Below the pieces are notes generated by a model that saw nothing but the letters and a program-made list of their open reading frames with translations, did no database searches and was not told the DNA's origin. From NCBI GenBank assembly GCA_016187335.1, contig JACPJW010000001.1, forward strand, positions 416,001 through 480,000: 64,000 nucleotides of DNA, read 5' to 3'. Below, one piece after another: positions 3,552-45,451 of this stretch. Both the position numbers and the translations under genes were made by a program. Position 1 is the first letter of the stretch. Every line of letters begins with the position of its first letter. This DNA comes from Candidatus Aenigmatarchaeota archaeon (GTDB taxonomy: Archaea; Aenigmatarchaeota; Aenigmatarchaeia; GW2011-AR5).

Positions 3552-3641
3552 TTTTTGACAGAACTTTTTCCTAAAAAGTTCTTTTTGATTAAACTTTTTC
3601 CTAAAAAGTTCTTTTTGATTAAACTTTTTCCTAAAAAGTTT
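3552..3641 (-). repeat. Three tandem 30-bp units, each a family-B palindrome AACTTTTT-CCT-AAAAAGTT plus (A/G)TCAAAAA tail on the minus strand
   Basis: Palindromes at 3562-3580, 3592-3610 and 3622-3640 with exact 30-bp period; the first unit on the minus strand overlaps the TAA stop of the upstream pilin-like gene. Confidence 0.95.
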
Positions 3642-4695
3642 AGAAGAAGACCTTCCAGAACAACAGGCTCAATTCAAACTGATCGCCGCCAATTGATGAA
3701 AGGAGAGAGCTTTCCGAAAAAGACGGCGCCGGTGTTTTCTTGAAATTGTCCATTTTGTAATGTTCACCGGAAGCCCACATAAGCGCCGCCTTCGTAAGGT
3801 TCTTCGTCTCCTGCGCGCCCTGAGTGTCTTTTGCATAGTCGTATCCCGAAAACCACACGGTTCGCCCATGGTTGTTCACAATGAACTGGTTTATCTTCAC
3901 ATAGGATATCTGGTTTCCTGGCGATGTTATTATAACGGACTTGTCCGTTACTTCAATCTGGTTTACGCCGCCGCCTGAAAATTCGCTGAATGCCGCGCTG
4001 GCGGGGTCTTTGCCAGTTAAGCCTCTGTAATATTTCGCTATCTTGTAAGAAACCTTTGAAGGCGTTACGGTGCTGTAAAATATTCCTTCGCCCCCGCCGC
4101 TCCCGGTCCACCTCAAATCAAAGACGCTGTTCATGAATCCGTCGCTTACCTGGTTTTCCGTCAGGTGCCCGAGCATGAATATTGTCCCGCCGCCGTCAAG
4201 GAAGCTGTTCAGCGCTGACATGTACGGATTGAGATTCTCATACCCGATTATGAAGGCAACGTCGGTCCGGGGGTTTATGTTGTTCAGGTTGTCGAGCCTC
4301 TGGATCCTCACGTCTATTTCCCTGTCCTTGTAGCCGAAGCGAAGAGGTGCAAGGAGAGATTCAAGGTCATCTTTCTCTGTTTCACTGCAGAAGCATTCGA
4401 CGTAAATTATGTCGTTGGGAATATCCCTGACTTCCAGCGAGAATTCTATGTTAGGGGGAAGGGTTTTCCTAAGGTCGTTGTTCAGCGAAGCTGCGTCATT
4501 GTTCTTCACATAGCCGGCAAGTTTGCCGCTTTTTTCCAAAGCAATAAGCGATTCCTTTGTCCTGGTGCTCAGAACCACGTCGTCCCACGAAGTCTGCTGC
4601 GTTGTGGGCAGGAAAAAATAGGATACTGAGGCTATGAGGATTATGGAAGCTATGATGGCTTCAAGCACCCTTATGAAACCTTTCATTATACCCAC
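3640..4695 (-). CDS. Class III signal peptide (pilin-like) protein
   Basis: N-terminus MGIMKG|FIRVLEAIIASIIL: KG cleavage site, E+5-like residue and hydrophobic helix; in an operon with a T4P ATPase. Confidence 0.75.
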   Translation of the reverse strand: MGIMKGFIRVLEAIIASIILIASVSYFFLPTTQQTSWDDVVLSTRTKESLIALEKSGKLAGYVKNNDAASLNNDLRKTLPPNIEFSLEVRDIPNDIIYVECFCSETEKDDLESLLAPLRFGYKDREIDVRIQRLDNLNNINPRTDVAFIIGYENLNPYMSALNSFLDGGGTIFMLGHLTENQVSDGFMNSVFDLRWTGSGGGEGIFYSTVTPSKVSYKIAKYYRGLTGKDPASAAFSEFSGGGVNQIEVTDKSVIITSPGNQISYVKINQFIVNNHGRTVWFSGYDYAKDTQGAQETKNLTKAALMWASGEHYKMDNFKKTPAPSFSESSLLSSIGGDQFELSLLFWKVFF

Positions 4696-4729
4696 CTTCG
4701 TCCTTGCTGCGACCCCATTTCATTTTTCA

Positions 4730-5227
4730 TCATGCGACGCCTACTTCTATGCTCACCCTTTCTTTGCTTTCCAAGACCCCGTATCTTTTCACGAGCGACT
4801 GCGGCAAAACAAGCGTAGCGACGGGCGGGGCGCAGTAAACATAAACCTCGTTTGTTTCCACGTTGGTTATGTTTATGACGACAGCGAAATTGGGGTCGCC
4901 AGTTACCAGGTCCCTCACATTGTTGTAGTTATCGCTGCACATCCCCTTCAGGGCGTTTATTTTCTGCATTGATATGACATATTTTTCCGGGGTTGACAGC
5001 CCGATTCTCTTCACGTTGCCGCTGTTCCAGTTTTTTGGTGCTCCCTCGTCCAGAAGAAGCGCTTCGGACATGGAAAAGCTTCTTGACCTCAGGGAAGATA
5101 CCAGGGAGCCCTCGTGAAACTGCGGCACGTTGTTGGCCACGCTTATAATCAGAAAAAAAACCGTGCCTAAAAACACAAGGACAGAAATGATAAACTCTAT
5201 GTTCACTACTCCCTTCATTTTGAACAC
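4730..5227 (-). CDS. Class III signal peptide (pilin-like) protein
   Basis: MFKMKG|VVNIEFIISVLVFLG prepilin-type N-terminus. Confidence 0.8.
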   Translation of the reverse strand: MFKMKGVVNIEFIISVLVFLGTVFFLIISVANNVPQFHEGSLVSSLRSRSFSMSEALLLDEGAPKNWNSGNVKRIGLSTPEKYVISMQKINALKGMCSDNYNNVRDLVTGDPNFAVVINITNVETNEVYVYCAPPVATLVLPQSLVKRYGVLESKERVSIEVGVA

Positions 5228-5245
5228 CGATACGATTCTCTGTCT

Positions 5246-6196
5246 TCACGCGAACCCGGCTTTTATGACCAGTACGAATATGAAGAAGCCGCTCAGCGTC
5301 ATTATCAGGCTGTGCTTTATTCCCGCGGAAACGGAATCGGACACTATCTGGCCAGCTATAAGCCCGGAAAAGAATCCCTGGATGATTATCATGACAAGGA
5401 ACAGCGAGCGGTAGTAAGACTCCGGCGCCTTTGCCGGGCCGAAATCAAGCGAGGACGAAACGCCCATGAACAATGAGCATCCCAGGCATTCCGGGCTGTT
5501 CGACGAGATGCATGGCGTGCACGGGTTCGGGTTGAATTCCTGGAATATGCCGGCGATGCTTCCGCCTGTGCCGCCCGGCTGCAGGAGCGGTATAAGGAAT
5601 TTGAGCAGCGCTATGCTGATTCCCAGGAATATGAAGAATATTGCGTACATCATAAGCACCTGCTGGTTAAGCAGGGAGGATTTTTCTTCCTGGACTTCCT
5701 TTATCATTTCAATGTTTTTCGCAAGCGACTCCATCGTATCTTCTATGCTGCCGCCGGATTTGTTCGCCTCATGGATTATCATTATGGACCTGACGATTAT
5801 CCTGCTGTGCCTCATCCTTTTCGCCCAGTCATTGAGCACCTTTTCCAGCGGGATGTTCCAGCTGAGCTGGTTGTCTATCCTTTTTATCTCGGCGGTGAGC
5901 GGCCCGTAATCGGATTTTGCCGCGGATTTTATTGCCTGCAATACAGTAAGGCCAGCCCTTTGCGATTCCGACAAATCCCTGAGGAAGTTCGGGAACTCTT
6001 TTTCGTACGCCCGCACTTTCTTGAATTCAAAGAACCTGTAAAGGCTGTAAGGTATTGTCAGGACTGCAAGACCGATAAATACAAGGTTCAGCGCAAGAAC
6101 TATGTCGCCGGAAAGGATTCCCATGGCCAGCAGGGAAATAAAAATAGCCGATGAAACCAGGATAATCTTCCTGCCATGGCTTAGTTTTTTCAGCAT
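5246..6196 (-). CDS. Type II/IV secretion system F-family membrane platform protein (TadC/FlaJ-like)
   Basis: FPNFLRDLSESQRAG, YGPLTAEIKR, SGGSIED motifs; several TM helices. Confidence 0.9.
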   Translation of the reverse strand: MLKKLSHGRKIILVSSAIFISLLAMGILSGDIVLALNLVFIGLAVLTIPYSLYRFFEFKKVRAYEKEFPNFLRDLSESQRAGLTVLQAIKSAAKSDYGPLTAEIKRIDNQLSWNIPLEKVLNDWAKRMRHSRIIVRSIMIIHEANKSGGSIEDTMESLAKNIEMIKEVQEEKSSLLNQQVLMMYAIFFIFLGISIALLKFLIPLLQPGGTGGSIAGIFQEFNPNPCTPCISSNSPECLGCSLFMGVSSSLDFGPAKAPESYYRSLFLVMIIIQGFFSGLIAGQIVSDSVSAGIKHSLIMTLSGFFIFVLVIKAGFA

Positions 6197-6202
6197 GATG
6201 AT

Positions 6203-7075
6203 CTACTCTTCTATAGGCGATATTGACTTTATCAAAAGGATAAAGCCCACGGAGATAAGCGGTATCAGTATGAACACTATGAATGTCTGTATTGCTATCG
6301 TACCGAGTCCGCCCGAAAGCGCCGCCACTATTGACGACAGTATTATAAAAAATATTGAGCCGGTTATTATCAGCGTCAGGTATATCTCCATGAACAGCGA
6401 AAGGTCCTGAGAATATTTTCTTATTTTTCTTCTGTACTCGCCCATAAGCTCTTCGGATTTCTTTTCAAGGTATTCCGCAAGGTTTCCCCCGGAAGAAGTG
6501 ACGTTGTCTATGCCCCAGAAAAGCTCTCTCAACTCCGAGGACGGCGTCCTTCTGGCCTGCCTCCTCATGGCGTTTGAAAAAGTCATTCCGAACACTTCAA
6601 CATTCTGGACTATTTCCCTTGCTTCCCTGCTCACTTCGCCGTACTCTTCAAAGCCTGCCAGCGTCCTGAAAGAGTCTATAGGCGGCAGACGCGACGAAGA
6701 CATTGTGGCAAGGTATGAAACGGCGAAAGGCAGGGCCTTGTTAATCTTGCTGCTCCGGTTTTTCGATGCGGTCACGGGGTAAGAATAAAACAGGAAAAAA
6801 AGAATTCCCGACAGCGTAAAGGAAAGAGTGAGGCCAAGAATGATTGATGTCACAACAGGGAATCCCAGAAGCCCGAAGATGAAAGCGGACAGGGCTGCCT
6901 CAACGAGAAAGGTTACGGAAACGGCAAACAGCGCTATGGAAATGTATTCTTCCAACGTGTACTTGATGCCCGCCTTCTGCAAGTCGTCCTGCAAATCGCT
7001 CAGGTAATTCTTCAAGGACTTGCTGAGGCTGCCGAATATTTTGTAGGCAATAGCAGCATAATTAGGCATATTCAA
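6203..7075 (-). CDS. Type II/IV secretion system F-family membrane platform protein
   Basis: LPFAVSYLATMSSS, YGEVSREAREIV, SGGNLAEYL motifs; TM helices. Confidence 0.9.
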   Translation of the reverse strand: MNMPNYAAIAYKIFGSLSKSLKNYLSDLQDDLQKAGIKYTLEEYISIALFAVSVTFLVEAALSAFIFGLLGFPVVTSIILGLTLSFTLSGILFFLFYSYPVTASKNRSSKINKALPFAVSYLATMSSSRLPPIDSFRTLAGFEEYGEVSREAREIVQNVEVFGMTFSNAMRRQARRTPSSELRELFWGIDNVTSSGGNLAEYLEKKSEELMGEYRRKIRKYSQDLSLFMEIYLTLIITGSIFFIILSSIVAALSGGLGTIAIQTFIVFILIPLISVGFILLIKSISPIEE

Positions 7076-8909
7076 TCCTCTGCAGCAAGAACTCGGGAGC
7101 AGTATAGAACAAATTGAATACGGAACCTAATTTCTGGTAGTCGTTGAGGTTTTTTTCAGCAGACCACTTCAGGACATTTGATTTTCTTTTTATGTCCTCG
7201 TTTATTTCTTCTTCTGATGCTCCGGTTGTTTCGGAGATTTTCTTAAGCAGCGAACTCTTGTTAACTACAGTGTAGGAATCATTTTTGGGGTTCCACCTGA
7301 AAACCTCGTTGGATACCACGGAATTGCTTCTCCTGTCGTACCCGAGGATTTCTATTACAGAAGAAATCCTCCTCTTGTAGACGCGTCCGTACTTCACCCT
7401 TTTGACGAATATTATCACGTCCAGGTTCTGTATAAGCCCTATAGGAAGGCTTATCGGCGGCGTTGAAAGCCTGTCCATAAGCTTGTTGAAATTTTCCGCA
7501 TGTATTGTCGACAGGCCGGCATGGCCCACGGCCATCTGCTGGAAAAGAACGTACGCTTCGCGCCCGCGGACCTCGCCGACGATTATGTAGTCAGGCCTCT
7601 GCCTCAGTGATTCTCTGAGCAATTCAAACATGTCAACCTTGCCTTCTTCCGACAGCGGAGTTCTTGCCACTTCCGATATCCAGTGGGAATGCGGCAGCCT
7701 CAGTTCCGGCGTGTCCTCTATGCTCACTATTTTCATCTGCGGCTTGATGAACAGGGAAAGCGCGTTGAGGAGCGACGTCTTTCCGGTAGCAGTTCCCCCG
7801 GATATGAGCAGGCTCTGGTTGTGCTCTATAAGGTACCAGAAATACGAGAGCATCTTCAGGTCGCACGTCCCGAACTTTACCATGTCCACGGGTGTTAGCG
7901 GCTTTTCCGTGAACATTCTTATGGTGAAATTGCTGCCGTGCATTGCAACGTCGCTGCTCAGGGTTGCCTGGACCCTTGAGCCGTCGGGCAGCGCCCCGTC
8001 AAGGAGCGGCTTCGCGACAGAGATAAGCTTTCCGCACCTTTCGGCAAGCTTGTTTGCAAAGGAATCAAGGGAGTCCTTGTCGGAGAACTTTATGTTAGTC
8101 CTCATTGAGCCGAGCCGCGGGTCCCTGTGGTAAATAAAAATAGGGATGTTCATGCCGTCGCAGGATATGTCCTCTATCTGCTTGTCCTTCAGGAGGGGCT
8201 CTATTTTTTCCAGCCCGACAAAATCCCTTATAACGTAATACATGAGGACGTCTACATCCACGTCAGGCCCGGCGCGGAAATAAGAGAGCGCACCCTCAAA
8301 TATTTTTTTGATGTAGCTCGTGGCGTCGCCCCTTACTTCCCCGAAGTTCACGTCAATCTTTTCCTGTACATACTCCTTTATTTCCCTGAGCAGCGCAGAG
8401 CTTTTCTCGTCAAGCTGCGGCTCAACAATGTCGTAGACAATTTCATTTATTTTCGGATTGAAGTAAATATGGGCGTAAGCGAAGACGCGCTCGCCCTTTT
8501 TCGGCTCCGAGGGTATTAGCGGATATGTGATGTTGATTCTTCTCATCTCAATTGTTTCTTCAGTCATGCCGACGCTTTCAATAGTCGGGGACTCGGCGGT
8601 TTCAGGTATTTTTATCCCGCCTTTTACGAATTCCTTCATATCGTAATCTTCCGTCAGTATAACAGGTATGGGGCCTGCCGGAAGCGCTGCAGCAGGCGGC
8701 GTTGAATACCCGCGGAATTCTGAAGAAGAATCAGGCTGCGAAGAATGCGGGCTGATATCCTGGGAAATTATACCGGGTTGTTCTTTGGCTGGCTGGGTTT
8801 TCACTTTTAGCCTTATTTTCTTCAGGCCGGTGGAAGTTTTCATGGAAATTAACACGGTCTTTTCCGGCCATGCTTCCTTTTTAGCGAGTTTTATCTTCAT
8901 TCCAAACAC
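7062..8909 (-). CDS. Type IV pilus assembly ATPase (VirB11/TadA/FlaI family)
   Basis: IEDISCDG, Walker A GGTATGKTS, Asp box SIEDTPEL, LRQRPDYIIVGEVRG, His box GHAGLSTIHA. Confidence 0.95.
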   Translation of the reverse strand: MFGMKIKLAKKEAWPEKTVLISMKTSTGLKKIRLKVKTQPAKEQPGIISQDISPHSSQPDSSSEFRGYSTPPAAALPAGPIPVILTEDYDMKEFVKGGIKIPETAESPTIESVGMTEETIEMRRINITYPLIPSEPKKGERVFAYAHIYFNPKINEIVYDIVEPQLDEKSSALLREIKEYVQEKIDVNFGEVRGDATSYIKKIFEGALSYFRAGPDVDVDVLMYYVIRDFVGLEKIEPLLKDKQIEDISCDGMNIPIFIYHRDPRLGSMRTNIKFSDKDSLDSFANKLAERCGKLISVAKPLLDGALPDGSRVQATLSSDVAMHGSNFTIRMFTEKPLTPVDMVKFGTCDLKMLSYFWYLIEHNQSLLISGGTATGKTSLLNALSLFIKPQMKIVSIEDTPELRLPHSHWISEVARTPLSEEGKVDMFELLRESLRQRPDYIIVGEVRGREAYVLFQQMAVGHAGLSTIHAENFNKLMDRLSTPPISLPIGLIQNLDVIIFVKRVKYGRVYKRRISSVIEILGYDRRSNSVVSNEVFRWNPKNDSYTVVNKSSLLKKISETTGASEEEINEDIKRKSNVLKWSAEKNLNDYQKLGSVFNLFYTAPEFLLQRIEYA

Positions 8910-8917
8910 CAGAACGC

Positions 8918-9388
8918 TTACCCGCGCCTTATTTTTATTGTCTTCCCGTCCAAGTATATTTCTGCCCTGCCGGCTGTACTCAGGACCTCACCGCTCAGGC
9001 AGAAAATACCTTCAATACTACAATCTGTCTGGGCTATGTTAAATAGTTTTTGAGATACTTTTGTTTCCGGATCGCTGAAATCGTAAACTATAACGGAATC
9101 ATCCTTGAGGGACACGACATAAACCTTTCCCGATATTTTATCCGGCAAACTTATCACTGCAGAAGAATTCTGGGCTGCTGTCCTGACAACGCCTGCTGCC
9201 ACGACATCCCCGATGTTGCGGAAATGGTCCTTTGTGGAGACGCTGTTAAGCGATGCCTGTATTGTGCTGAAGCTGAGAGCAACATGGGCGGTTATCAGGA
9301 CTCCTATGGCAAACAGTAGAACTTCGTTGACGACGAGATGCTGGCCCTTCATTCCCTTATTAAGAATATTATTTTTCCTTTTTTTCAT
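8918..9388 (-). CDS. Class III signal peptide (pilin-like) protein
   Basis: Basic leader, then KG|QHLVVNEVLLFAIGVLI. Confidence 0.75.
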   Translation of the reverse strand: MKKRKNNILNKGMKGQHLVVNEVLLFAIGVLITAHVALSFSTIQASLNSVSTKDHFRNIGDVVAAGVVRTAAQNSSAVISLPDKISGKVYVVSLKDDSVIVYDFSDPETKVSQKLFNIAQTDCSIEGIFCLSGEVLSTAGRAEIYLDGKTIKIRRG

Positions 9389-9430
9389 AAATATTCTTTA
9401 TTGAGGCCGATAATAAAGATGCGGAATAAA

Positions 9431-10150
9431 TCAGATTAAGTCCAGATTTATGACGGTTTTTGTTATGATCTTGCCGTTTTCTTCCGTTTCCGACGTGCCT
9501 TTGCTTTCAATTATGATTGAGTGGTCAAGGCCGGCGCTTTTGACCTGGTCTGAAGTGAGCACAAGAGAATAAACCCTTATAGTCTGCGTTTTCAGCGGCA
9601 CATATCGCAGCGTATAAGATGTCAGGTACTTGTTTTCGTCAAGCTTCACGCTCTTGACGCACAGGATGCCTGCGTCGTCAGAGCCCCATGCCCCTTCCGA
9701 AGCCGTGCACGTGCTGTTCTTCAGCGGTATCTCCGCGCCCGTGGCGTATATCGTCCCTTGCGTATCTGCGTCGAGCTGGATTACCCAGCCGTTCGGGCTG
9801 CTGTCTATTTTCACGATGCCTGACGCCGTGATTTTCAGCTGGTCTCGTCCGCCGGTGTTTGCAACTGTCTTTATCTTGCTGTCCAGGGTTTTCATGAACT
9901 GCTCGCTGCTCTGCAGCAGCGAGACGTCCTTGTTTTTCTGTATAAGGGGTATTCCCCAAAGATAGACGGATCCCACGATGCCGATCAGTATCCCGCTCAG
10001 GAGTATCGCCGTGACAGCCTGTTCCTGGCCTTTAGAGGAGAAAAACCAAGGTTTTTCTCCCTCTACCCTCTTTTCCTTATTATTTTTTGATAGAACTTTT
10101 TTGTAAAAAGTTCTTCTCATTCCCTTATTAGAAATATTATTTGACATCAA
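9431..10150 (-). CDS. Class III signal peptide (pilin-like) protein with a long leader containing DNA palindromes
   Basis: KG|QEQAVTAILLSGILIGIVG; exact start uncertain (10150/10147/10120). Confidence 0.75.
   Translation of the reverse strand: MMSNNISNKGMRRTFYKKVLSKNNKEKRVEGEKPWFFSSKGQEQAVTAILLSGILIGIVGSVYLWGIPLIQKNKDVSLLQSSEQFMKTLDSKIKTVANTGGRDQLKITASGIVKIDSSPNGWVIQLDADTQGTIYATGAEIPLKNSTCTASEGAWGSDDAGILCVKSVKLDENKYLTSYTLRYVPLKTQTIRVYSLVLTSDQVKSAGLDHSIIIESKGTSETEENGKIITKTVINLDLI
10084..10113 (-). repeat. Family-B palindrome with ATCAAAA tail
   Basis: Minus strand AGAACTTTTTACAAAAAAGTTCT-ATCAAAAA; lies inside the pilin leader ORF. Confidence 0.85.
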
Positions 10151-10252
10151 AACCTAATTGTTTTCAAGGGTAATTAAGCTTTTCCAGATTTGGTAAAGCA
10201 AAGCTTTCCAAATCTTCAAGATGAATCAAAGATTTATCTTAGAAGAAAAAGT

Positions 10253-10660
10253 TCACACTATGGGCGCGGCTGGCATTCTTGGTCTTGCCATTTTCTTGGA
10301 CATCGCTGACATGAGGATGGCATTAACGCGCTTTTCTAATTTTGCCAGACGCTCGTCCATCTTCCTTTCAAGCTGTGGCGACTCTTCCTTTACTTCCTCG
10401 CCTTCTATCTCAACCCGTGCCATGAAATCATCCAGTCTTGCCGTCAGCGCGCTCACGGACTGAATAGTGCTGTTCACCCTGTCAACCATCTCCGAGTTGC
10501 TTTTCACTATTTCATCCACAATCTGCTGGTTTGTCTTGACTATTTCCATCAAATCCTTCATCAATTCCTCGGAACCGCCGGACCGCTCAATCTTGTCAAC
10601 CCTTTTTTCCAGCCGCCTTACCGGATTCATAGGCACAAGCTCGTATTCGTCTTCTTCCAT
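10253..10660 (-). CDS. Hypothetical coiled-coil protein (start re-placed at ATG 10660, MEEDEYELV)
   Basis: Heptad-rich; the upstream ORF extension merely translates a repeat; GGTG-like SD upstream of 10660. Confidence 0.7.
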   Translation of the reverse strand: MEEDEYELVPMNPVRRLEKRVDKIERSGGSEELMKDLMEIVKTNQQIVDEIVKSNSEMVDRVNSTIQSVSALTARLDDFMARVEIEGEEVKEESPQLERKMDERLAKLEKRVNAILMSAMSKKMARPRMPAAPIV

Positions 10661-10681
10661 GAACAATACACCACATATCCG

Positions 10682-10709
10682 TTTTGATAGAACTTTTTTG
10701 AAAAGTTCT
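10682..10709 (-). repeat. Family-B palindrome with ATCAAAA tail
   Basis: Minus strand AGAACTTTTCAAAAAAGTTCT-ATCAAAA; intergenic. Confidence 0.85.
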
Positions 10710-10746
10710 CTTTTATTATATTTGCAAAAGCGGTATAAATAGGTTT

Positions 10747-11064
10747 TCACGATCTCAAAGAGCTTCGCTCTTTGAGAATGTCCCCGAAAGCCCGGCAGAA
10801 ATATTCCTTTGCACGCATAACGGCTTTCTTGCCCTCAGGCGTCAGCGAGTACACAATTATTTTGCCCCTTTTATCCCCCTTTATGAGGCCCTTGCTTTTC
10901 ATGTCCTTCAGCGCAGGGTATATCGTTCCTGCCTTGGGCTTCTCGCCCCGGCGCTTCCCTATCTCCCCGGCAAGCTGCTCGCCGTTCATCTCCTTCTTTG
11001 ACAGAAGCCATAAAACCTGGAAGGACAGCATCCCCCGCATGTCGCAGCCGTGATCATGTTTCAT
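10747..11064 (-). CDS. PadR-family transcriptional regulator (start re-placed at ATG 11064)
   Basis: ILWLL-type helix, KPKAGTIYPALKDM, KIIVYSLTPEGK winged-helix motifs. Confidence 0.88.
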   Translation of the reverse strand: MKHDHGCDMRGMLSFQVLWLLSKKEMNGEQLAGEIGKRRGEKPKAGTIYPALKDMKSKGLIKGDKRGKIIVYSLTPEGKKAVMRAKEYFCRAFGDILKERSSLRS

Positions 11065-11144
11065 AGCAATTATAGGGCATCCTATATATTTAAATACATG
11101 ACCGATACATAATATCGGATATCCTATATGCAGGAAGTGATGAA

Positions 11145-11747: not shown

Positions 11748-11786
11748 TGTCTGTTTTGATGCTTAAACAAAAAGGAGTTGGTTGAA

Positions 11787-13767: not shown

Positions 13768-13813
13768 TTCAAATACACCTCGTTAATAGAATTTCTTTCC
13801 ATGCACGCTTTCA

Positions 13814-13843
13814 TTTTTGACGCAACTTTTTCCTAAAAGTTGC
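13814..13843 (-). repeat. Family-B palindrome with GTCAAAA tail
   Basis: Minus strand GCAACTTTTAGGAAAAAGTTGC-GTCAAAAA, upstream of the thermosome start. Confidence 0.85.
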
Positions 13844-14498: not shown

Positions 14499-14500
14499 GT

Positions 14501-15501: not shown

Positions 15502-15660
15502 GGGCCGGTAGCTCAGTGGTAGAGCACCTGTCTTATACGACGTGTTTTCTTAATTGGAAAAAGAAAACATTGCTAAGCCAGCAGGGGGTCGAGAGTCCGA
15601 TACAAACTTTTCCAAAAAGTTTGATCAAAAGGGAAAGTTGCGGAATCCTCTCCCGGCCCA
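15502..15660 (+). tRNA. tRNA-Ile(UAU) with two introns (37/38: 15538-15579; 59/60: 15602-15646)
   Basis: Acceptor GGGCCGG/CCGGCCC + A73; anticodon arm CCTGT-CT TAT AA-GCAGG; T arm GAGAG/CTCTC. Both introns have BHB geometry (CTTA/TAAG and TCCG/CGGA central helices, 3-nt bulges). Confidence 0.9.
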
Positions 15661-16996: not shown

Positions 16997-17109
16997 GGGC
17001 TTGTAGTCTAGAGACCCTTTAGAAAAAGCGTCTACGAAAAGGGTTGGAAAATGGTTATGACGTCGCCTTCACACGGCGAAGGTCGGCGGTTCGAATCCGC
17101 CCGAGCCCA
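16997..17109 (+). tRNA. tRNA-Val(CAC) with one D-loop intron (16/17: 17013-17050)
   Basis: GGGCTTG/CGAGCCC + A73; TCGCC-TT CAC AC-GGCGA; GGCGG-TTCGAAT-CCGCC; BHB central helix TCTA/TGGA, outer helix ACCCTTT/AAAGGGT. Confidence 0.93.
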
Positions 17110-17111: not shown

Positions 17112-17134
17112 GCAACTTTCTGGAAAAAAGTTGC
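17112..17134 (+). repeat. Family-B palindrome just 3' of tRNA-Val
   Basis: GCAACTTT-CTGGAAA-AAAGTTGC; no ATCAAAA tail on this copy. Confidence 0.75.
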
Positions 17135-29364: not shown

Positions 29365-29499
29365 GGCCGCCATGGTGTAGAAAGCCCTTTTTGACGCTTC
29401 GCTTATCAAAAAGCGCTTGCGGAAATAATTAGGGTTTGCAAATTGGTAGCATCGGAGCCTGTGGAGCTCCTTGGCTGGGTTCGAATCCCAGTGGCGGCC
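29365..29499 (+). tRNA. tRNA-His(GUG) with genome-encoded G-1 and a D-loop intron (16/17: 29382-29442)
   Basis: G-GCCGCCA/TGGCGGC-C73; GGAGC-CT GTG GA-GCTCC; CTGGG-TTCGAAT-CCCAG; BHB TGTA/TGCA, outer helix AGCCCT/AGGGTT. Confidence 0.93.
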
Positions 29500-36496: not shown

Positions 36497-36543
36497 CGGG
36501 TTGATTCTACAAGTTTTAATACTTTAAAGTAGTAACGAGTCGT

Positions 36544-37131: not shown

Positions 37132-37169
37132 ATAATAAGAGAAAGAAATCAAGGAAAACAAAGGAGAGG

Positions 37170-37490: not shown

Positions 37491-37563
37491 TTTTTTCGCA
37501 GTCTTCACGTGATTAATTAAAGTTTTCAATTTCCTTTAAGAAAATTGTTTCCAAAGGAAATTC

Positions 37564-38634: not shown

Positions 38635-39332
38635 ACCCAAACCCCCAGCAATGAGCCGATAAGGAAGCCTGTCAATGCCGCTGCCATCCCGACCAAGGAC
38701 ATCTCTATTCCGCTCTTCCACCATGTGCCCAGAGTCATCTTCGCCTTGACGGAGCCGGCGATGAACAAAGTGATAGTTGAAATTATTACGGAAACAATTA
38801 TAGCATCCTTTATCGGTATGAAGAAGAAAGGCAGCAGCGGTATCAGCGAGCCGATGATAGCTGAGAATCCTACGACGAATGCGCTTTTTGTCGGGTTCTC
38901 AGAGTCCTCAGGCGATACGTGAAGTTCCTCTGTCATCATCGTGTCCAGCCACACCTTCTTGTCGGACGTGATTTTGTCCACTATTTTTTTCAGCGGGGCG
39001 CCGCGGAATCCTTTCCTGTAATAAATGTCGCGAATTTCCTTCCTTTCGACATGCGGCAGTTCCCTTATCTCCTTCATCTCCCTTTCCTTTTCGCTTTTGT
39101 AGAAATCCCTGCTTGCCTTGAAGGACGTGTAAGCGACAGCTGCCATGGAAATGCTCTCCGCAAAGGTGGCGGCAATGCCGGCAATAATGACTATTCTGGC
39201 GTCCTGCACGGCTGTCGCGACACCGAGAATGATTCCCAGAACATTGACGAGGCCGTCCTGCCCGCCGAGGATGAAGTCGCGCAGCGTAGAGCCGCTCTTG
39301 TGCATTTCCCTGTGAACGTCTGCTGACGACAT
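38631..39332 (-). CDS. VIT1/CCC1-family metal transporter
   Basis: LRDFILGGQDGLV, AESISMAAVAY, PTKSA, GSLIPLLPF. Confidence 0.92.
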   Translation of the reverse strand: MSSADVHREMHKSGSTLRDFILGGQDGLVNVLGIILGVATAVQDARIVIIAGIAATFAESISMAAVAYTSFKASRDFYKSEKEREMKEIRELPHVERKEIRDIYYRKGFRGAPLKKIVDKITSDKKVWLDTMMTEELHVSPEDSENPTKSAFVVGFSAIIGSLIPLLPFFFIPIKDAIIVSVIISTITLFIAGSVKAKMTLGTWWKSGIEMSLVGMAAALTGFLIGSLLGVWV

Positions 39333-39397
39333 GGTTTTCTCTTGGCGAAAACGTGATTTAAAGATTTTAGTTGAGTTTTAGTGTAGCATTAGTTCAT

Positions 39398-39661
39398 GCG
39401 CCCGTAGCTCAGCTTGGCAAACTTTGCTACTCCAAAGTTTGATCAAAAGAGGTCTGTGACGAAGTTTGAGCAAATAGAGCACTTCTCTCCTAGAGGTGAA
39501 TTGAGCGCAACGGAAGACTGAAGTTTCTGAAGAAACTTCAGCCGGTTTTGTGCGATGATAATTTCCTGAAGTGAGGAAGGGGCCGCGCGTTCGAATGCAC
39601 CCTTTCTTGGAAAGAAAGCGTGCACGGAAAGAAAAGGGTGCCGAATATCGCGCCGGGCGCG
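39398..39661 (+). tRNA. tRNA-Arg(CCU) with three introns (19/20: 39418-39473; 37/38: 39493-39573; 59/60: 39596-39647)
   Basis: GCGCCCG/CGGGCGC + G73; spliced D-loop AGCTTGGATA; CTTCT-CT CCT AA-GGAAG; GCGCG-TTCGAAT-CGCGC. BHB central helices GCTT/GAGC, CTCC/GAAG (one mismatch), TTCG/CGAA. Confidence 0.92.
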
Positions 39662-39664
39662 CTT

Positions 39665-39967
39665 ATGTTCCATTACAGAGATCCGATAAGGGAAATAGCG
39701 GAAGAAGACGGATATTTCCTCACCGAGACAGCCGAAGGTATGAATCTTGCCTTGAAGACAATCTTAGGCTTTGCAAGCATAATACTCAGGGAACTGGAAG
39801 GGGGGAAATGTTATGTAAAAATAGTACTTGAGCCTCCTAGAGGTTTATCAAGGACAGCCGAAGAAATTTTTGAAAGTCCTTATTCCGCGGCCGGATATGT
39901 TGCAAAATGGATGTGCGGACCTATCTATACGGATCTGGTTCAAGAAGTTGAGGCGTTAATTCTCTAA
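39665..39967 (+). CDS. Hypothetical protein, 100 aa (start re-placed after the tRNA)
   Basis: ATG at 39665, 4 nt after tRNA-Arg; the ORF-track extension overlaps the tRNA intron. Confidence 0.5.
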   Translation: MFHYRDPIREIAEEDGYFLTETAEGMNLALKTILGFASIILRELEGGKCYVKIVLEPPRGLSRTAEEIFESPYSAAGYVAKWMCGPIYTDLVQEVEALIL

Positions 39968-40001
39968 TCTTTATATTCCGCCTTCGCACAAAAGATTCAT
40001 T

Positions 40002-41339
40002 ATGAGGAAATATCTGTTATCAATAGTCCTGCTGCTGCTTTCGTCTGTACCTGTTTTTGCAGTGGGCAACCTCACGGTTTTCAGCGTTCCTTTATCACAG
40101 CCGGCTGTCTACGCAAACACCAACCAGTCCGTTAACGTCCTTAACCTGACCCTGAACGTGACGGCGGGCAGCGGCGCGGACGGCGTCATCAACATAACTG
40201 TCATCAATATTACGGTGACCAACAGCAGCGAAGGCAACCTGTCAGCGGGCAATATATCAGCGGTTGAGGTCAGGAACAGCACGGGGTTCCCGATAGCAAG
40301 GAACACAACAGTCAATCCTGCAAACAACATGACGTTCACGATTTCAATCCCGGGAGGGCTGACCATAAACACATCTAATGCGACCATATGGATTGCCATC
40401 AACATATCAAGGTCGGCGGCGCGCTTCCTGAACATATCAGTGAACATAACGGGTCCCGGGGAAATAGGCACGAACAGCTCTGTGAACAATATCACGATAT
40501 CAGGCGTTTCAATAAAGTCAAACGGCGTGCAGATACAGAATTTACATTCAAACTCAACAATATCGCCGCGCTTTGTGGACACGGGCGTTGAGAACCAGTC
40601 GTTCACTTACACCTTGGTTCCGCCGACTGGAACGGATGCAATAAAGAACGTCAGTATTTCGTTCCCGGCCAATTACACCTTGTCCAAGCTCATTTCAATA
40701 ATGGTTGGCGGCGGCGTCCCGGACGGCGCGACAAACAATACAGCCGTCAACGGCATAAACATTTCCCTGAGCACGGCCACGACCCAGACAATACAGGTAA
40801 ACTTCACCGCCAACACTTCCGTCAATCCTATCCAGAACAGGGCGTTCTCATCAACCCTGGACGGAGGAAACCTCTCTGCCGTGTCAACTGATCCCACGCT
40901 GGAAGGGGTGAATGTAAGCACACAGCCCATACTGAACCTTACGAACGTCACCCTGGTAAAAAGCACTGCAATAATCAACGGCACCGATTACTGGGAATTC
41001 AATTTCACTTTGAATTACACTGCCAACATATCAACAGGAGGCCTGATTCAGTTCAGGCTCACGGACTGGAACACTTCTTCCGGCAGCACGCTTGCATTGA
41101 ACAATTCATTGTGCGATGGCAGCAGGTGCGCGTCCCTGAGGAACGAGACAACCATGAACACCACAGGGAAATTCAACATAACGAATGATTACGAATCTTT
41201 CACAAAGGGAATCACCATATCGTCCATAACACAGGGCACCCTGACAATACTGGTCTTGAGAATGGTAATACCTTCAAATGCCCCGACATCATCCAACTGG
41301 CAGGCTGCTTACGGATTTTTGTTCAGGTCAAGCCCTTGA
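40002..41339 (+). CDS. Secreted Asn/Thr/Ser-rich surface glycoprotein (beta-rich)
   Basis: Sec-type signal peptide; very high density of N-x-S/T sequons. Confidence 0.75.
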   Translation: MRKYLLSIVLLLLSSVPVFAVGNLTVFSVPLSQPAVYANTNQSVNVLNLTLNVTAGSGADGVINITVINITVTNSSEGNLSAGNISAVEVRNSTGFPIARNTTVNPANNMTFTISIPGGLTINTSNATIWIAINISRSAARFLNISVNITGPGEIGTNSSVNNITISGVSIKSNGVQIQNLHSNSTISPRFVDTGVENQSFTYTLVPPTGTDAIKNVSISFPANYTLSKLISIMVGGGVPDGATNNTAVNGINISLSTATTQTIQVNFTANTSVNPIQNRAFSSTLDGGNLSAVSTDPTLEGVNVSTQPILNLTNVTLVKSTAIINGTDYWEFNFTLNYTANISTGGLIQFRLTDWNTSSGSTLALNNSLCDGSRCASLRNETTMNTTGKFNITNDYESFTKGITISSITQGTLTILVLRMVIPSNAPTSSNWQAAYGFLFRSSP

Positions 41340-41360
41340 CGTTTTTAATAGTGATGCTGA

Positions 41361-42572
41361 ATGGATTATCGCCTTTCAATACTTTTAGCTGCGGCATGCC
41401 TGCTTCTGCTGTCCTTCGTTTCCAGAGGAGAAACAACCGGCAATGTAAGCATCTCAACGCAGGGAAATATTTCCCCGTCAACAGGGGTTTACGGATATGT
41501 AGCTCCCGGCGGATGCAACAGCAACGCGGAGTGCTACGACTATAAATGCTTCCAGGATTTTTTGGTGCCATCCGGAAACAAGACCGGCAGGTGCGACGTC
41601 CCGGCAACCACAAAATGCTTTCACAGCGGGACAGGCTATTCAACCGGCACTTATTATTGCTCGGCTAACACATCGTATTACCGGTGCGATACAGGCGGCA
41701 ACGGAAGCTGGACAGGCGCGTTTTCGTGCTCGTCAGGCCAGACGTGTTCTGTTGATAGTACGTCGTCTTCAGCCCCTTGCTCAACATCGTCGCCTTCAAG
41801 CAGCTCAAGCAGCAGCGGAGGCGGAGGCACAGCAATAAAGAAAGCCTCTGTCCAGCTTGTCTCGGGCATAGCCGGCTTTGAAATTTATCAGGAGGAAGAT
41901 GTCAACAAAACGGTTATCGTGAAAAACAACGGCGATTATGTCCTTGGCAATGTCTACCTTGACATACAGGGAATTCCTTTTGCTTCCGTCCTTACGGGCA
42001 GCAGCGAGATCAATTTGTCAAAAAATTACAACTTCACCGTGTCTTTCATGCCCAAAAACTCTACTGAAATCAGGACGTACCCCGCCAATGCAACGGTTTA
42101 TACCAACTTCACCAATACGACGGCAAACTTTTCCTTCACAGTCAAAGTACTCCCAAGCAACAGGACCGTTTCAGAGTCAATCATTCCCGCGTACGCAGAA
42201 TATATCAACCTTTCTCTGGAATACGAAAAGAACGTAACGGCCCTGGAAAAGGAAGGGCATAACCTCACGGATGCGAGGGCGATTCTTACGACAATAAAGG
42301 CAAAGATGCAGGACATCAACCAGTCGATATCCAAGAAGGACTACTTTTCTGCTGCATCCCAGATCAGCGAGGTGAAGGTTCTTTTTGATGAGCTCCAGAA
42401 AACCATTTCAAAATCCGAAAAGCCGAAAGGAACGGATATAATAATTTATCTGGCCGTCGCCGCTGCCATTCTGGTGGCAGTTATTCTGGCCTACCTTCTG
42501 TGGCCGTCAAAGCAGCAAAGAAGAGTTTTTCAGGGCCAGCAGTATTCGCAAGCAGCAGTAATTAAGCAATAG
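41361..42572 (+). CDS. Membrane-anchored surface protein: Cys-rich domain, Ser/Gly linker, Ig/CARDB-like domain, coiled coil, C-terminal TM
   Basis: Signal peptide; multiple Cys; SSSSSSSGGGG linker; VIVKNNG; terminal IIIYLAVAAAILVAVILAYLLW. Confidence 0.75.
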   Translation: MDYRLSILLAAACLLLLSFVSRGETTGNVSISTQGNISPSTGVYGYVAPGGCNSNAECYDYKCFQDFLVPSGNKTGRCDVPATTKCFHSGTGYSTGTYYCSANTSYYRCDTGGNGSWTGAFSCSSGQTCSVDSTSSSAPCSTSSPSSSSSSSGGGGTAIKKASVQLVSGIAGFEIYQEEDVNKTVIVKNNGDYVLGNVYLDIQGIPFASVLTGSSEINLSKNYNFTVSFMPKNSTEIRTYPANATVYTNFTNTTANFSFTVKVLPSNRTVSESIIPAYAEYINLSLEYEKNVTALEKEGHNLTDARAILTTIKAKMQDINQSISKKDYFSAASQISEVKVLFDELQKTISKSEKPKGTDIIIYLAVAAAILVAVILAYLLWPSKQQRRVFQGQQYSQAAVIKQ

Positions 42573-42927
42573 AGATCCGGCCGGCGTCAGCGGCTGGTGG
42601 TTTCTTTCCCTGAACCGACCTTTCTGCGGCAAACTTGCAGAGGATGACAAATCTGCTGTTCAGTTCGCCGCGGTCAAGCTTGTTTTCAAAAATCACGGAA
42701 GCCAGTTTTCTCGCCTCTGAAATTATTTCGTCGTTGGAAAAAACCCTGTCGTTTTTCCCCCTTATCCTGCGCAGGTATTGCGATATTGCCGGCTGCGATA
42801 TTCCCATCAGCCTTGCGGCCTCGCTCTGGTTAAGATTGTAGCCCTCAATAAGCTCTCTGGCTATCAATGATCTCAGAGACGGAACTATTTCGCTGGCAAT
42901 CAGTTCCCATTCAATTTTCATTTTCAA
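42562..42927 (-). CDS. Archaeal HTH transcriptional regulator (COG2522-like)
   Basis: IVPSLRSLIARELIEGYNLNQSEAARLMGISQPAISQYL. Confidence 0.85.
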   Translation of the reverse strand: MKMKIEWELIASEIVPSLRSLIARELIEGYNLNQSEAARLMGISQPAISQYLRRIRGKNDRVFSNDEIISEARKLASVIFENKLDRGELNSRFVILCKFAAERSVQGKKPPAADAGRISIA

Positions 42928-42999
42928 TCACCGATGCAAGGAGAAGCAAAGCTTCTATGATAAGAGATTGAAACAAACGTTTTTAAGCCTGATAAGTTT

Positions 43000-43107
43000 C
43001 TAGAATTTTATTATACCGAGGGCTATGAGGCCTGTCACCAGAACGATGGCCGTTATGAGTATCCAGAAATAAGTGTAAACGTAATCATGCGTCGACTTTT
43101 CTTTCAT
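43000..43107 (-). CDS. Possible 35-aa single-TM microprotein
   Basis: MKEKSTHDYVYTYFWILITAIVLVTGLIALGIIKF; manual translation. Confidence 0.4.
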   Translation of the reverse strand: MKEKSTHDYVYTYFWILITAIVLVTGLIALGIIKF

Positions 43108-43162
43108 AATCAGAACCCATCATGTTAATTAATTTTATTTAGTCGGTTCCGGTACCTCCGAC

Positions 43163-43687
43163 TTATTTCTTCATCATCAGGGGCTCCCCTTTTTCAGGGT
43201 AATGCACGTCAATCAGCTCGTAATCCTGCAGTACGCGGGCCCACTGCTCTACAAGGCCTTCATGGACGCCGAATTTCTTCGCGGCGTCTTTCAGTTTCAC
43301 CTTTTTGTTTTTCATCACCAGGTCAAACAGCTCGTCCAGAGGCGCCTTGTAATCCTTCTTCAAATCAGCAATAACCTTTTCATTGCTCACGATGCCTTCC
43401 TTGGCGACTCTTTCAAAGAACTTTGCATTATCAATGATTATCTGCTTTGCAGGCTTGACAATGCTTTCTTTTACCGGCTCTGAAATGCTTGGCAGCTTTC
43501 TCAGAATATCCTTGTATCTTTCAAGAAGAAAATCCCTGTCGCTTTTCAGCTCGATGTTTTCTTTTTTCAGCTTGATTATAGTATCCTTCATGATGGAGAA
43601 GGATTCCTCCATGCGCTGCATCCTCCTGTTCATTTCCCTTTCAAGTCTGGCAATTTTTTTTTCGGCGTCGTCAGCGAATAGAGGCAT
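43163..43687 (-). CDS. Hypothetical coiled-coil protein with C-terminal winged-HTH-like region
   Basis: Heptad repeats, then LDELFDLVMKNKKVKLKDAAKKFGV...WARVLQD. Confidence 0.65.
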   Translation of the reverse strand: MPLFADDAEKKIARLEREMNRRMQRMEESFSIMKDTIIKLKKENIELKSDRDFLLERYKDILRKLPSISEPVKESIVKPAKQIIIDNAKFFERVAKEGIVSNEKVIADLKKDYKAPLDELFDLVMKNKKVKLKDAAKKFGVHEGLVEQWARVLQDYELIDVHYPEKGEPLMMKK

Positions 43688-43747
43688 AAGAAAAAATTCT
43701 TTTGATATTTTTTAAAGCTTATAACGAACGGGAGCGAACACATATGC

Positions 43748-44548
43748 ATGTACGTTGTCAAGGCCGACGGCCGGCGCGAGACTTTCAGCAAAGAGAAAAT
43801 AATAAATACATGCCTCAAGGCCGGAACCGACAGGAAGAAGGCTGAGGAAATATCAGGAAAAGTTTTTTCGTCCGTCAAAGACGGGATTGCCACGAAGGAA
43901 ATATACAGAATGATTCTGAATCTTCTTGAAAAAGCGAGCCATAGGTCATCTTTCTTTTTCCGCCTCAGGGACGCAATAGCAAAGCTCGATTCTGAAAGCT
44001 ATGAACTCTATGTAAAAGAGCTTTTGGAATCCATGGGCTACAAATGCTCGTGGAATAAAATCATTGCCGGAAAATCCGTGGAGCATCAGGTTGATATTGT
44101 TGCAAAAAACGCGAAAGGCAGAATGTTTCTTGTTGAATGCAAAAGGCACGTGAACCCCCACAGGTTCTGCGGCCTGGGCGTCATTTTGCAGGTCCAGGCG
44201 CGCCTTGAGGACATAGATGACGGCTTCGAATCAGGGAAAAATAATTGCAGGTTTGACCAGGCGTGGATATTCAACAACACGAAATTCTCGGAGCACGCAA
44301 AGCAGTACGCTGCGGCAAAAAATATCCTCCTGAGCGGATGGGGGTACAAAGGAAGCATTTCTATAGAAAAGCTTGCTGGCAGGAACAGGATATATCCCGT
44401 GACGCTGCTGAAAGCAGACAATTCAACAATACAGCAGCTGCTCCGTCAGAAAATAATCACGGTGGAGGATGTCCTGAAAGAAAAGATAAGCATGCCGAAG
44501 AGCGTTGCCGATGAGCTCAGGAAGCAGGCACGTATCATTCTTTCTTAA
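43748..44548 (+). CDS. ATP-cone domain fused to Mrr-like PD-(D/E)xK restriction endonuclease domain
   Basis: MYVVKADGRRETFSKEKI (ATP cone); SYELYVKELL, QVDIVAK, FLVECK, NTKFS. Confidence 0.85.
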   Translation: MYVVKADGRRETFSKEKIINTCLKAGTDRKKAEEISGKVFSSVKDGIATKEIYRMILNLLEKASHRSSFFFRLRDAIAKLDSESYELYVKELLESMGYKCSWNKIIAGKSVEHQVDIVAKNAKGRMFLVECKRHVNPHRFCGLGVILQVQARLEDIDDGFESGKNNCRFDQAWIFNNTKFSEHAKQYAAAKNILLSGWGYKGSISIEKLAGRNRIYPVTLLKADNSTIQQLLRQKIITVEDVLKEKISMPKSVADELRKQARIILS

Positions 44549-44573
44549 AAATTATCTGTGCAGTTATTAGCAG

Positions 44574-44678
44574 GCCGGCGTCGCATAATCTGGTGGTGCA
44601 CTGATTGCATGCGAAGCAAGTGTATGTCTCGAAAACCAGCGGGCTCTGCCCATGCAGGTTCAAATCCTGCCGCCGGCG
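44574..44678 (+). tRNA. tRNA-Ser(CGA) with one anticodon-stem intron (29/30: 44604-44625)
   Basis: GCCGGCG/CGCCGGC + G73; CTG|GT-CT CGA AA-ACCAG; long variable arm GGGC-TCT-GCCC; BHB GCAC/GTGT, outer helix TTGC/GCAA. Confidence 0.92.
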
Positions 44679-44682
44679 CTTT

Positions 44683-45150
44683 ATGATAGAAATAAAACTA
44701 GCTGCTGAAAAGGATAGGCAAGGCTTTGAAAATCTGGCTGCAGAAAGAGACAAAGAAATAAGGCAGCGCAGGGCAAAAAATTACTGGGGCAAAAAATTCA
44801 CGAAGCTTGTCATGGAAAAGAGGCTGGTAATTAGCCTTGACAAAGGCAAGCCATCAGGATTTCTTTATTTTACATTCGAATTTATCGACTATCCTGCGGC
44901 GTACGTTGAGCTTATTTTTGTTTCAAAGAAGAGCCGGAGAAAGGGTTCAGCCTTGTATTTGTTGAATAGATTCGAGCGGCTCGCGTCAGAAAACGGTTTT
45001 GTCAATGTATTTTCCAGCACAAATCCAAGCAACAGGATCTCGCTGAAATTGCACAAGAAGCTCGGCTACAAAGAATGCGGCTTTATCTACGGCATAGAAA
45101 ACAGGCGCAGCAAGGAGATTTTTCTCTCAAAAGAACTGAAAAAAACCTAA
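44683..45150 (+). CDS. GNAT-family N-acetyltransferase (start re-placed at ATG 44683)
   Basis: YVELIFVSKKSRRKGSA acetyl-CoA loop; STNPSNRISLKLHKKLGY. Confidence 0.85.
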   Translation: MIEIKLAAEKDRQGFENLAAERDKEIRQRRAKNYWGKKFTKLVMEKRLVISLDKGKPSGFLYFTFEFIDYPAAYVELIFVSKKSRRKGSALYLLNRFERLASENGFVNVFSSTNPSNRISLKLHKKLGYKECGFIYGIENRRSKEIFLSKELKKT

Positions 45151-45191
45151 ACTTCCTTTTTAAGTTTTGAAACAAGTTCTTAGTATTTCAT

Positions 45192-45451
45192 GCCGGGATA
45201 CCGAAATCAGGTCTCTCAAGATAAGAGTGAAGAAATTCACGATGATTGCCTTTCATTGGTAAACGGGCCAGTGCAGTTCCGCTTCAAAGAAGCGGTGCGG
45301 CCAACCTTGAGAGCTGGTGCGCCTTCGGCGCGTGGGGGTTCAAAGCACCCTTTCTTTTTGCAAAAGAAAGCGTGCGCGGAAAGAAAAGCAACTTTTCAGA
45401 AAAGTTGCATCAAAAATAAAGGAAAGGGCTGTGAAATTCCCTCTCCCGGCG
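45192..45451 (+). tRNA. tRNA-Ser(UGA) with three introns (17/17a: 45209-45256; 30/31: 45272-45304; 59/60: 45345-45437)
   Basis: GCCGGGA/TCCCGGC + G73; spliced D-loop AATCTGGTAA; CCAG|C-CT TGA GA-GCTGG; long variable arm. BHB central helices GAAA/TTTC, GGCC/GGCC, TTCA/TGAA. Confidence 0.92.

Follow-up and report, generated by a model that had tools for sequence, protein, structure and literature searches.

The window considered here is the whole 64-kb stretch of DNA that was analysed (C2:416001-480000), part of a 1.01-Mb genome of 47% GC that is distributed over two contigs (C1 and C2) and has a marker-gene completeness of 91%. The host is an archaeon, as judged from matches to the archaeal small- and large-subunit rRNA models, an encoded splicing endonuclease EndA and a ribosomal-protein cluster of archaeal type that includes SUI1 and RNase P p29. 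Distributed over the window are copies of a short palindromic repeat, referred to as Family B, which is found in tRNA introns as well as in the spacers between genes. Its architecture can be written as NN-AACTTT(T)-loop-(A)AAAGTT-N'N', followed by an ATCAAAA tail. All copies listed in a preliminary description of the window hold the motif, three of them exactly and the rest as close variants; the exact form AACTTTT-N2-3-AAAAGTT lies at 10691, 15605 and 45390, i. e. three matches in the window against a chance expectation of 0.01.

Outside of introns, three tandem copies with T5 arms follow one another with a 30-nt period on the minus strand at 3552..3642 (cores 3562-3580, 3592-3610 and 3622-3640). 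This array (fold z = -3.9) fills the entire spacer between two minus-strand open reading frames (ORFs). The TAA (3640-3642) of ORF 3640..4695 constitutes the base of the first hairpin, and the last tail stops 1 nt short of the ATG (3550) of ORF 2885..3550. Further free copies on the minus strand are located at 10084..10114 (core 10094-10112, T5 arms; z = -4.8), 10682..10709 (core 10691-10707; z = -2.7) and 13814..13843 (core 13824-13841, T5 arms; z = -2.7), so that the RNA-fold z of the window copies ranges from -2.7 to -4.8. The copy at 10084..10114 is flanked by two 'ATAATAAGGRAA..GAG' repeat modules and lies upstream of what is likely the true start of the minus-strand gene 9431..; a nearly identical composite is found at C2:81527. 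The copy at 10682..10709 is placed between a TATA-like AATATAATAAAAG and a probable minus-strand ATG, and thus 5' of a gene instead of behind a stop codon, while that at 13814..13843 lies between two minus-strand ORFs and is followed by a AGCGTGCATGGAAAG module.

The remaining copies of the window belong to tRNA genes on the plus strand. ARAGORN reported no tRNA at all in the window, and Rfam, searched at the gathering score, yielded two tRNA matches for the whole window and none for the element. Nevertheless, the window holds a minimum of seven tRNA genes with introns (15502-15660, 16997-17109, 29366-29499, 39398-39661, 44574-44678, 45192-45451 and 47654-47834). Genome-wide, 37 tRNA genes were rebuilt by custom finders and six more from other evidence; a finder that demanded a strict bulge-helix-bulge (BHB) motif recovered only about 10, and the finder with free intron positions required a GC-weighted stem score against many false cloverleaves. 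Standard tRNA finders thus miss most tRNAs of such genomes.

The gene for tRNA-Ile(UAU) (15502..15660) carries two introns at 15538-15579 (37/38) and 15602-15646 (59/60), and was rebuilt by intron excision with an ARAGORN rescan and two custom finders, giving 21/21 stem pairs. Its 45-nt intron at 59/60 (15602..15646) is composed of arm 1 (15603-15613), arm 2 with the tail (15614-15630) and a third arm (15631-15640), and is enclosed by a strict hBHBh' motif with the central helix TCCG/CGGA, the bulges AUA and AUC and the T-stem as outer helix. Folded to minimum free energy, the intron has its arm 1 base-paired to the third arm GGGAAAGUUG instead of to arm 2, and a 17-nt loop is made up of arm 2 and the tail. 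The T-loop of the spliced tRNA reads UCCGAUC, in which C55 replaces the near-universal U55; the orthologue of a congener (G001, about 70-80% nucleotide identity in flanks) has UUCGAUC, and the tRNA-Phe of the present genome (C2:411913-412149) has UCCAAAU.

The gene for tRNA-Val(CAC) (16997..17109) has one intron in the D-arm and bears a Family B hairpin in its 3' trailer (17112..17134, plus strand; core 17114-17132), arranged as discriminator A73, UA and hairpin. This copy is tail-less, as had been claimed; the orthologous trailer of the congener (L022 as listed) displays the full hairpin, tail and third arm. The gene for tRNA-Arg(CCU) (39398..39661) is interrupted three times, in the D-loop, the anticodon loop and the T-loop. 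The D-loop intron at 19/20 (about 39418..39473) harbors a variant termed B3 (core 39420-39439), which consists of AACTTTG, a 6-nt loop, CAAAGTT and TGATCAAAAGAGG and represents a sub-family with the tail extension AAAAGAGG. The variant occurs with the same extension at no fewer than 10 other loci, including post-stop and tRNA-trailer sites, and also in the congener. The gene for tRNA-Ser(UGA) (45192..45451) contains introns at 45209-45256, 45272-45304 and 45345-45437. In the last of these, a 93-nt intron at 59/60, a CCCTTTC...AGCGTGCGCGGAAAG module precedes the nested Family B core (45390-45406), and a strict BHB (TTCA/TGAA) is again formed with the T-stem as outer helix. Excision restores the Ile, Arg and Ser cloverleafs with 20-21 of 21 stem pairs in the custom finders, and the intron positions given earlier for these three tRNAs were correct.

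Genome-wide, a loose regular expression returned 121 Family B loci and a fuzzy one 131 tail-bearing copies, to which the following stem and orientation counts refer. A strict pattern of 26-28 nt is matched by 73 copies, and the same pattern read backwards by none. Although at least 10 pair combinations occur at the two outer stem positions, 117 and 119 of the 131 copies, respectively, have a Watson-Crick pair there. Being variable yet Watson-Crick, these two pairs make the element a hairpin of 9-10 bp that covaries and that is 2 bp longer than originally described. The tail is conserved though unpaired. Non-canonical stem pairs are scarce and symmetric (15 G·U vs 11 A·C), and these near-perfect Watson-Crick stems are therefore compatible with importance at the RNA as well as at the DNA level. 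Sub-families can be told apart by the sequence behind the tail (GGGAAAG or CGGAAAG), and others have T5-7 arms or comprise three hairpins. Often, Family B is joined to other repeated modules such as a GACCTTCTCAGAGGTC hairpin, an AGCG-N5-CGGAAAG motif or a CCCTTT lead-in. It is thus a short extragenic palindrome in many copies, often in tandem or mosaic arrays, as are the repetitive extragenic palindromic (REP) sequences and bacterial interspersed mosaic elements (BIMEs). A fuzzy match at C2:731021 is probably not Family B, and a reading as C/D-box or H/ACA RNA was dropped, as the apparent 'UGAUGA' merely results from the variable outer pair together with the tail, and an internal pocket is missing from the stem.

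The placement of these copies is far from random with respect to transcription. Among the tail-bearing copies, 21 lie sense and one antisense in tRNA introns, and all eight copies in tRNA 3' trailers are sense, which gives 29 sense vs 1 antisense for the tRNA-associated ones. Of the copies flanked by co-directional ORFs, 50 point in the sense and 9 in the antisense direction (binomial p = 5e-8). The co-orientation with transcription noted in the window thus holds throughout the genome. The preliminary description had regarded the copies outside of introns simply as free; they are rather anchored to the ends of mature RNAs. Of 66 copies with a same-strand ORF upstream, 25 have their hairpin base at -3 to +7 nt relative to the stop codon and 20 at -3 to 0, where the stop codon itself (TAA, TGA or TAG) is part of the stem. 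In the trailers, the usual layout is discriminator A73, 2 nt and the hairpin, and two copies directly follow the 16S 3' end. In the ribosomal-protein cluster upstream of secY, copies are found after the stops of S19, SUI1, S17 (two in tandem) and L30. Most copies that appear to lie inside ORFs are situated at ORF ends or in over-extended ORFs.

A palindrome could also act in the DNA, as a binding site or cruciform for a nucleoid, replication or recombination protein, with the orientation bias as a by-product of gene orientation. The near-perfect Watson-Crick stems, the lack of a G·U excess and the overall strand bias of copies on the contigs (88 to 31) would fit such a site. Yet, the outer pairs covary rather than hold one sequence, the orientation follows the local gene strand and not the contig, and the element borders on RNA ends with single-nucleotide precision and accompanies a BHB in introns, which renders a purely DNA-level site quite improbable.

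Sense copies directly behind stop codons and tRNA 3' ends, with a T-run in the 5' arm, might likewise be taken for ordinary transcription terminators, in which case the likeness to introns would be that of any AU-rich hairpin. Intrinsic terminators of archaea are as a rule associated with oligo-T tracts. Among 98 free copies, however, only 21 have T5 or longer in the arm and 77 have T4 or shorter, 67 have no T5 run in the element plus 25 nt downstream, and the tail is A-rich. The T-run length of free vs intron copies does not differ significantly (p = 0.16). Moreover, the element is found between the cistrons of the normally co-transcribed ribosomal-protein cluster as well as within tRNA and rRNA genes, which are essential. 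About 21 specific bases, the covarying pairs and the tail are common to intron and free copies, which far exceeds a generic hairpin likeness and bears out the sequence relationship between repeat and introns that had been postulated. Family B is thus no oligo-T terminator, and we consider an ordinary transcription terminator improbable.

In its second habitat, Family B resides in D-loop, anticodon-loop and T-loop introns of at least 15 tRNAs, adding up to at least 21 tRNA introns, and in three rRNA mini-introns. The latter (C2:209934, 242109 and 242574) are 44-50-nt inserts in the 23S and 16S genes that are enclosed by a perfect BHB. The 23S gene spans 4.3 kb (C2:208273-212555) for a model of 2987 positions, and the 16S gene 3.3 kb (C2:239678-242953) for a model of 1478 positions that is matched in two blocks; by this comparison of span and model length, insertions amount to well over 1 kb in each of the two genes.

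The surroundings of intron and free copies differ in two respects. The first is the enclosing BHB. A looser test had found one in 100% of cases everywhere and did not discriminate; it was replaced by a strict one requiring the central 4 bp and at least 5 of 6 flanking pairs, with the intron class limited to tRNA introns. A strict BHB encloses 13 of 21 tRNA-intron copies (62%), compared with 33 of 101 free copies (33%) and 203 of 655 shifted control positions (31%), so that free copies show none above chance; in the remaining tRNA-intron copies, the BHB is relaxed or not resolved by this test. With 6/6 flanking pairs, the counts are 6 of 21, 6 of 101 (three of them rRNA inserts) and 25 of 655, respectively. 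None of the eight trailer copies is enclosed by a BHB, and none of 37 leaders pairs with the tail to make a BHB around the tRNA ends. The earlier suggestion that the element is tolerated in tRNAs only where it forms a BHB is thus supported by the enrichment. The second difference is the third arm, defined as at least seven contiguous pairs with arm 1 just after the tail, which is present in 14 of 25 intron copies (shuffled 1/25) vs 18 of 98 free copies (shuffled 18/98; Fisher p = 5e-4). Given both contrasts, the flank copies are not cryptic introns, and the intron copies represent a derivative that carries the needs of the BHB. The only EndA gene detected is a 202-aa ORF with PF02778 and PF01974 domains (C2:410505-411113), a two-domain protein unlike the three-unit epsilon-type enzyme described in PMC3239211, on which ground an assignment of the genome to ARMAN-2 (Micrarchaeum) was rejected. 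Excision of the introns by this enzyme is predicted from the BHB motifs and the restored cloverleafs.

The strict motif is not confined to this genome. Within the order, 14 of the 31 genomes scanned carry it, and within the class 45 of 251, distributed across many families; the reversed control was always 0. Copies per genome are uneven, mostly 0-6, with bursts of 73, 21, 15 and 10 in four genomes. Other genera and families show the same three contexts, i. e. introns in the D-loop, anticodon region and T-loop, A73-UU-hairpin trailers, and a TAA fused to the hairpin. One orthologous anticodon-region intron retains the motif in three genera while its outer pairs covary. At closer range, turnover is fast: about six copies are common to orthologous sites of this genome and G001 and about 10 are present in G001 only, and about half of the sites differ. 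The copy that follows secY in another genus is absent here, and one 37/38 intron site holds Family B in G001 and a CCCTTT/AGCG...CGGAAAG module here. Two tRNAs are of particular value. For tRNA-Ile(UAU), G001 (L022) has an uninterrupted T-arm and a full trailer element, and the present genome the 59/60 intron and a decayed trailer remnant; for tRNA-Phe(GAA), G001 (L036) has an intact T-loop and a trailer element, and the present genome (C2:411913-412149) a 59/60 intron. A search for tRNA-Ile(UAU) in five other genera, intended to polarise gain vs loss, retrieved none, and a search for the Arg and Ser tRNA orthologues in relatives returned only repeat modules.

These comparisons also bear on another explanation, according to which Family B is a conserved cis-acting RNA signal that is read by a conserved trans-acting factor, such as an RNA-binding protein or nuclease and possibly the 3'-end or splicing machinery. 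The hairpin and AUCAAAA would then mark the mature ends of mRNA, tRNA and 16S, repeat-like spread would be secondary, and introns would keep the element since that factor assists in their processing or disposal. The exact motif in many families of the class with a reversed control of zero, the same three contexts in distant genera, the precise placement at stop codons, at A73 plus 2 nt and at the 16S 3' end, the conserved unpaired tail, and the intron kept with covarying outer pairs in three genera all speak for a signal of this type. On the other hand, the element is absent from most genes and tRNAs and so cannot be a general 3'-end signal, about half of the sites differ between congeners, and related genomes hold between 0 and 73 copies. 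In addition, the intron fold places arm 2 and the tail in a loop instead of presenting hairpin and tail, and no candidate factor was identified. We regard this explanation as possible, though unlikely. Fast turnover and lineage-specific bursts argue for a copied repeat, and exact core conservation in the class together with nucleotide-precise anchoring at RNA ends argues for a conserved factor that reads the element.

Taken together, we lean with modest confidence toward Family B being a structured repeat similar to REP/BIME that inhabits transcribed spacers, also builds BHB introns and probably has a role as an intercistronic or 3'-end hairpin. It would be one module among several small structured repeats, each a hairpin with an A-rich tail, that in this DPANN-type archaeon and its class reside in sense orientation in RNA which is transcribed and then discarded. 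In the flank form, hairpin and ATCAAAA stand directly 3' of mature RNA ends, i. e. at stop codons (often as stem base), at the tRNA discriminator plus 2 nt, at the 16S 3' end and between the cistrons of the ribosomal-protein operon, and would most likely act there on RNA stability or processing, as bacterial REP/BIME hairpins do. In the intron form, the module is extended by a third arm complementary to arm 1, which closes the inner helix (h') of the BHB, so that the splicing endonuclease could remove the cassette from tRNAs and rRNAs. Copies would be gained and lost quickly at the DNA level via copy-and-paste or recombination, and within tRNA and rRNA genes only those that form a BHB would survive. 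Observed are the repeat family and its orientation, the anchoring at 3' ends, the BHB and third arm of the introns, the turnover among congeners and the spread over the class; the role of the flank copies, the direction from flank to intron and the mode of copying are inferred.

Several points weigh against this reading. A G·U-over-A·C excess, the mark of an RNA-level stem, is missing among the tail-bearing copies. Exceptions to the general pattern comprise the nine antisense copies between co-directional genes, the one antisense copy in a tRNA intron (C2:906829-906847 on the minus strand, in the tRNA at 906692-906883 on the plus strand), some copies 5' of genes and at least one in-frame copy within an ORF. 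At C2:888710-888736, a perfect copy lies in frame within a high-scoring 385-aa ORF, to which it adds about 10 residues with no enclosing BHB. The gene calls are home-made, with unreliable gene starts. The Ile and Phe differences may reflect either gain of the intron here or loss in the congener. Furthermore, the exact 26-nt motif is kept across many families, beyond what most selfish repeats show, and such class-wide conservation may point to a conserved trans-acting factor. Finally, the enzymes and scars of mobility are missing: no RVT_1 reverse transcriptase was found in the 91% complete genome; the Y1 (IS200/IS605-like) transposase PF01797 is represented in this genome only by a sub-threshold 16.7-bit fragment with a stop codon, and three filled/empty site pairs, a small sample, show no target-site duplication. 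The Y1_Tnp-like fragment (C2:791846-791974, E = 0.005) lies between the Family B copies at 789698 and 793732. A Y1 transposase is present in one of five copy-rich relatives, and an autonomous parent element was not found. With neither a reverse transcriptase nor an intact Y1 transposase, spread mediated by REP-associated tyrosine transposases (RAYTs) or by reverse transcription is unsupported.

This affects the earlier proposal of an RNA-mediated spread, one version of which would have an excised cassette enter BHB-like sites by reverse splicing and reach the genome via reverse transcription and recombination. The strong sense bias and the BHB motifs that hold the intron copies would be expected from such a process. 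Considering that no RVT_1 enzyme was detected at the given completeness, that the stems lack a G·U excess, that free copies have no BHB above chance and that the third arm of the intron copies is missing from the flank copies, we consider such a spread very improbable. The label of a REP element or miniature inverted-repeat transposable element (MITE) holds in part: a dispersed palindromic repeat with turnover is indeed present, RAYT/IS200 TnpA, reverse transcriptase and target-site duplication were not found, and the motif is more widely conserved than a young MITE.

As regards the direct route from repeat to intron put forward previously, two orthologous tRNAs differ between the congeners in having or lacking the intron, and the intron copies carry a third arm and are thus not a plain drop-in. 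Conceivably, a flank copy, for example of a tRNA trailer, would be copied into a gene and gain the third arm that completes the BHB. By extension, the BHB introns of tRNAs and rRNAs in the class might have been born from a dispersed 3'-flank hairpin repeat whose flank copies serve as a lineage-wide, sequence-specific RNA 3'-end or intercistronic signal for a conserved factor, a far-reaching scenario that is tentative and in its entirety rather doubtful. If true, it would explain how archaeal introns are gained and at the same time add an RNA-end element not known before.

Some further repeated structures accompany Family B. The AGCG-N5-CGGAAAG motif, often with the CCCTTT lead-in, is a second shared module that occurs in the window at 13780-13813, 45357-45385 and 39607-39635 and elsewhere at C2:903802, C2:525034 and C1:53605. 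Its habitats are tRNA introns and 3'-flank composites of about 150 nt with multiple hairpins that covary between copies. Another repeat, in which ATAATAAGGRAA(A)TGAG precedes a covarying hairpin (GAGGGAGAAAAACC..GGTTTTTCTCC), is found in the window at 10040-10084 and at C2:81480-81530, 716230-716290 and 739040-739100, and might be a promoter with a 5' hairpin. At the tRNA locus C2:738831-739025, an exact 16-nt duplicate of the gene's own 5' end precedes the gene and is followed by a Family B copy. This arrangement can be read as a leader remnant or as a D-loop intron holding a copy of exon 1, and may represent an intermediate of intron formation.

A review of 2014 (PMC4090602) still called the arrival of archaeal tRNA introns unknown; so did a preprint of 2026 on the tRNA introns of Asgard archaea (10.64898/2026.10.13.758758), which found no general route. 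In the literature searched, no account was found of a repeat dispersed between genes that at the same time forms the core of BHB introns. Family B allows one small repeat to be traced through its states, i. e. RNA 3'-end copies, tRNA trailers, third-arm introns and two contrasting orthologous tRNAs, and intron gain or loss thereby becomes directly testable by comparative genomics and EndA assays, which offers a concrete lead on the origin of archaeal tRNA introns. That a sequence-specific hairpin is anchored so tightly at stop codons and at the ends of tRNAs and 16S may point to an RNA-end element of DPANN-type archaea not described so far.

Among known systems, the tRNA genes of Thermoproteales harbor families of transposed BHB introns, whose mechanism is described as unknown and presumed to operate on DNA (Fujishima et al. 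2010, summarized in PMC4090602 and cited in PMC3239211). Family B resembles these families in that the same intron sequence recurs in different isoacceptors and positions (D-loop, anticodon loop and T-loop), that the presence of introns differs between close relatives, as for Ile(UAU) and Phe(GAA) at 59/60, and that a BHB is required at the junctions. In contrast to them, Family B is at least as common outside of tRNA genes (behind stop codons, in trailers, behind 16S and in rRNA mini-introns), is sense-oriented, and has an exact core that is conserved across a class of small-genome archaea; the summaries consulted make no mention of free-standing copies.

A different set of parallels is offered by dispersed bacterial repeats, with which Family B has its copy number, transcribed extragenic sites, 3' ends, arrays and fast turnover in common. 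REP/BIME sequences, which are associated with RAYTs, and Correia elements are short palindromes in about a hundred or more copies that are extragenic but transcribed, often sit at gene 3' ends or between cistrons in tandem or mosaic arrays, and turn over fast. Unlike REP/BIME, Family B has no Y1 (RAYT) transposase in this genome or in four of the five copy-rich relatives, occurs in an archaeon, also provides intron cores, and is very strongly biased in orientation toward transcription. With MITEs it shares the small size, the absence of coding capacity, the high copy number and the lineage-specific bursts; it differs in that neither target-site duplications (three pairs) nor an autonomous parent were found, and what would be the terminal inverted repeat is the whole single-hairpin element. 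The exact motif, kept in many families of the class, is also more widely conserved than in an ordinary young MITE. Rickettsia palindromic elements, in turn, are palindromic repeats able to sit in frame in protein-coding genes. The one in-frame copy at C2:888710 recalls these elements, yet this location is rare for Family B, whose main habitats are the 3' flanks of RNAs and BHB introns.

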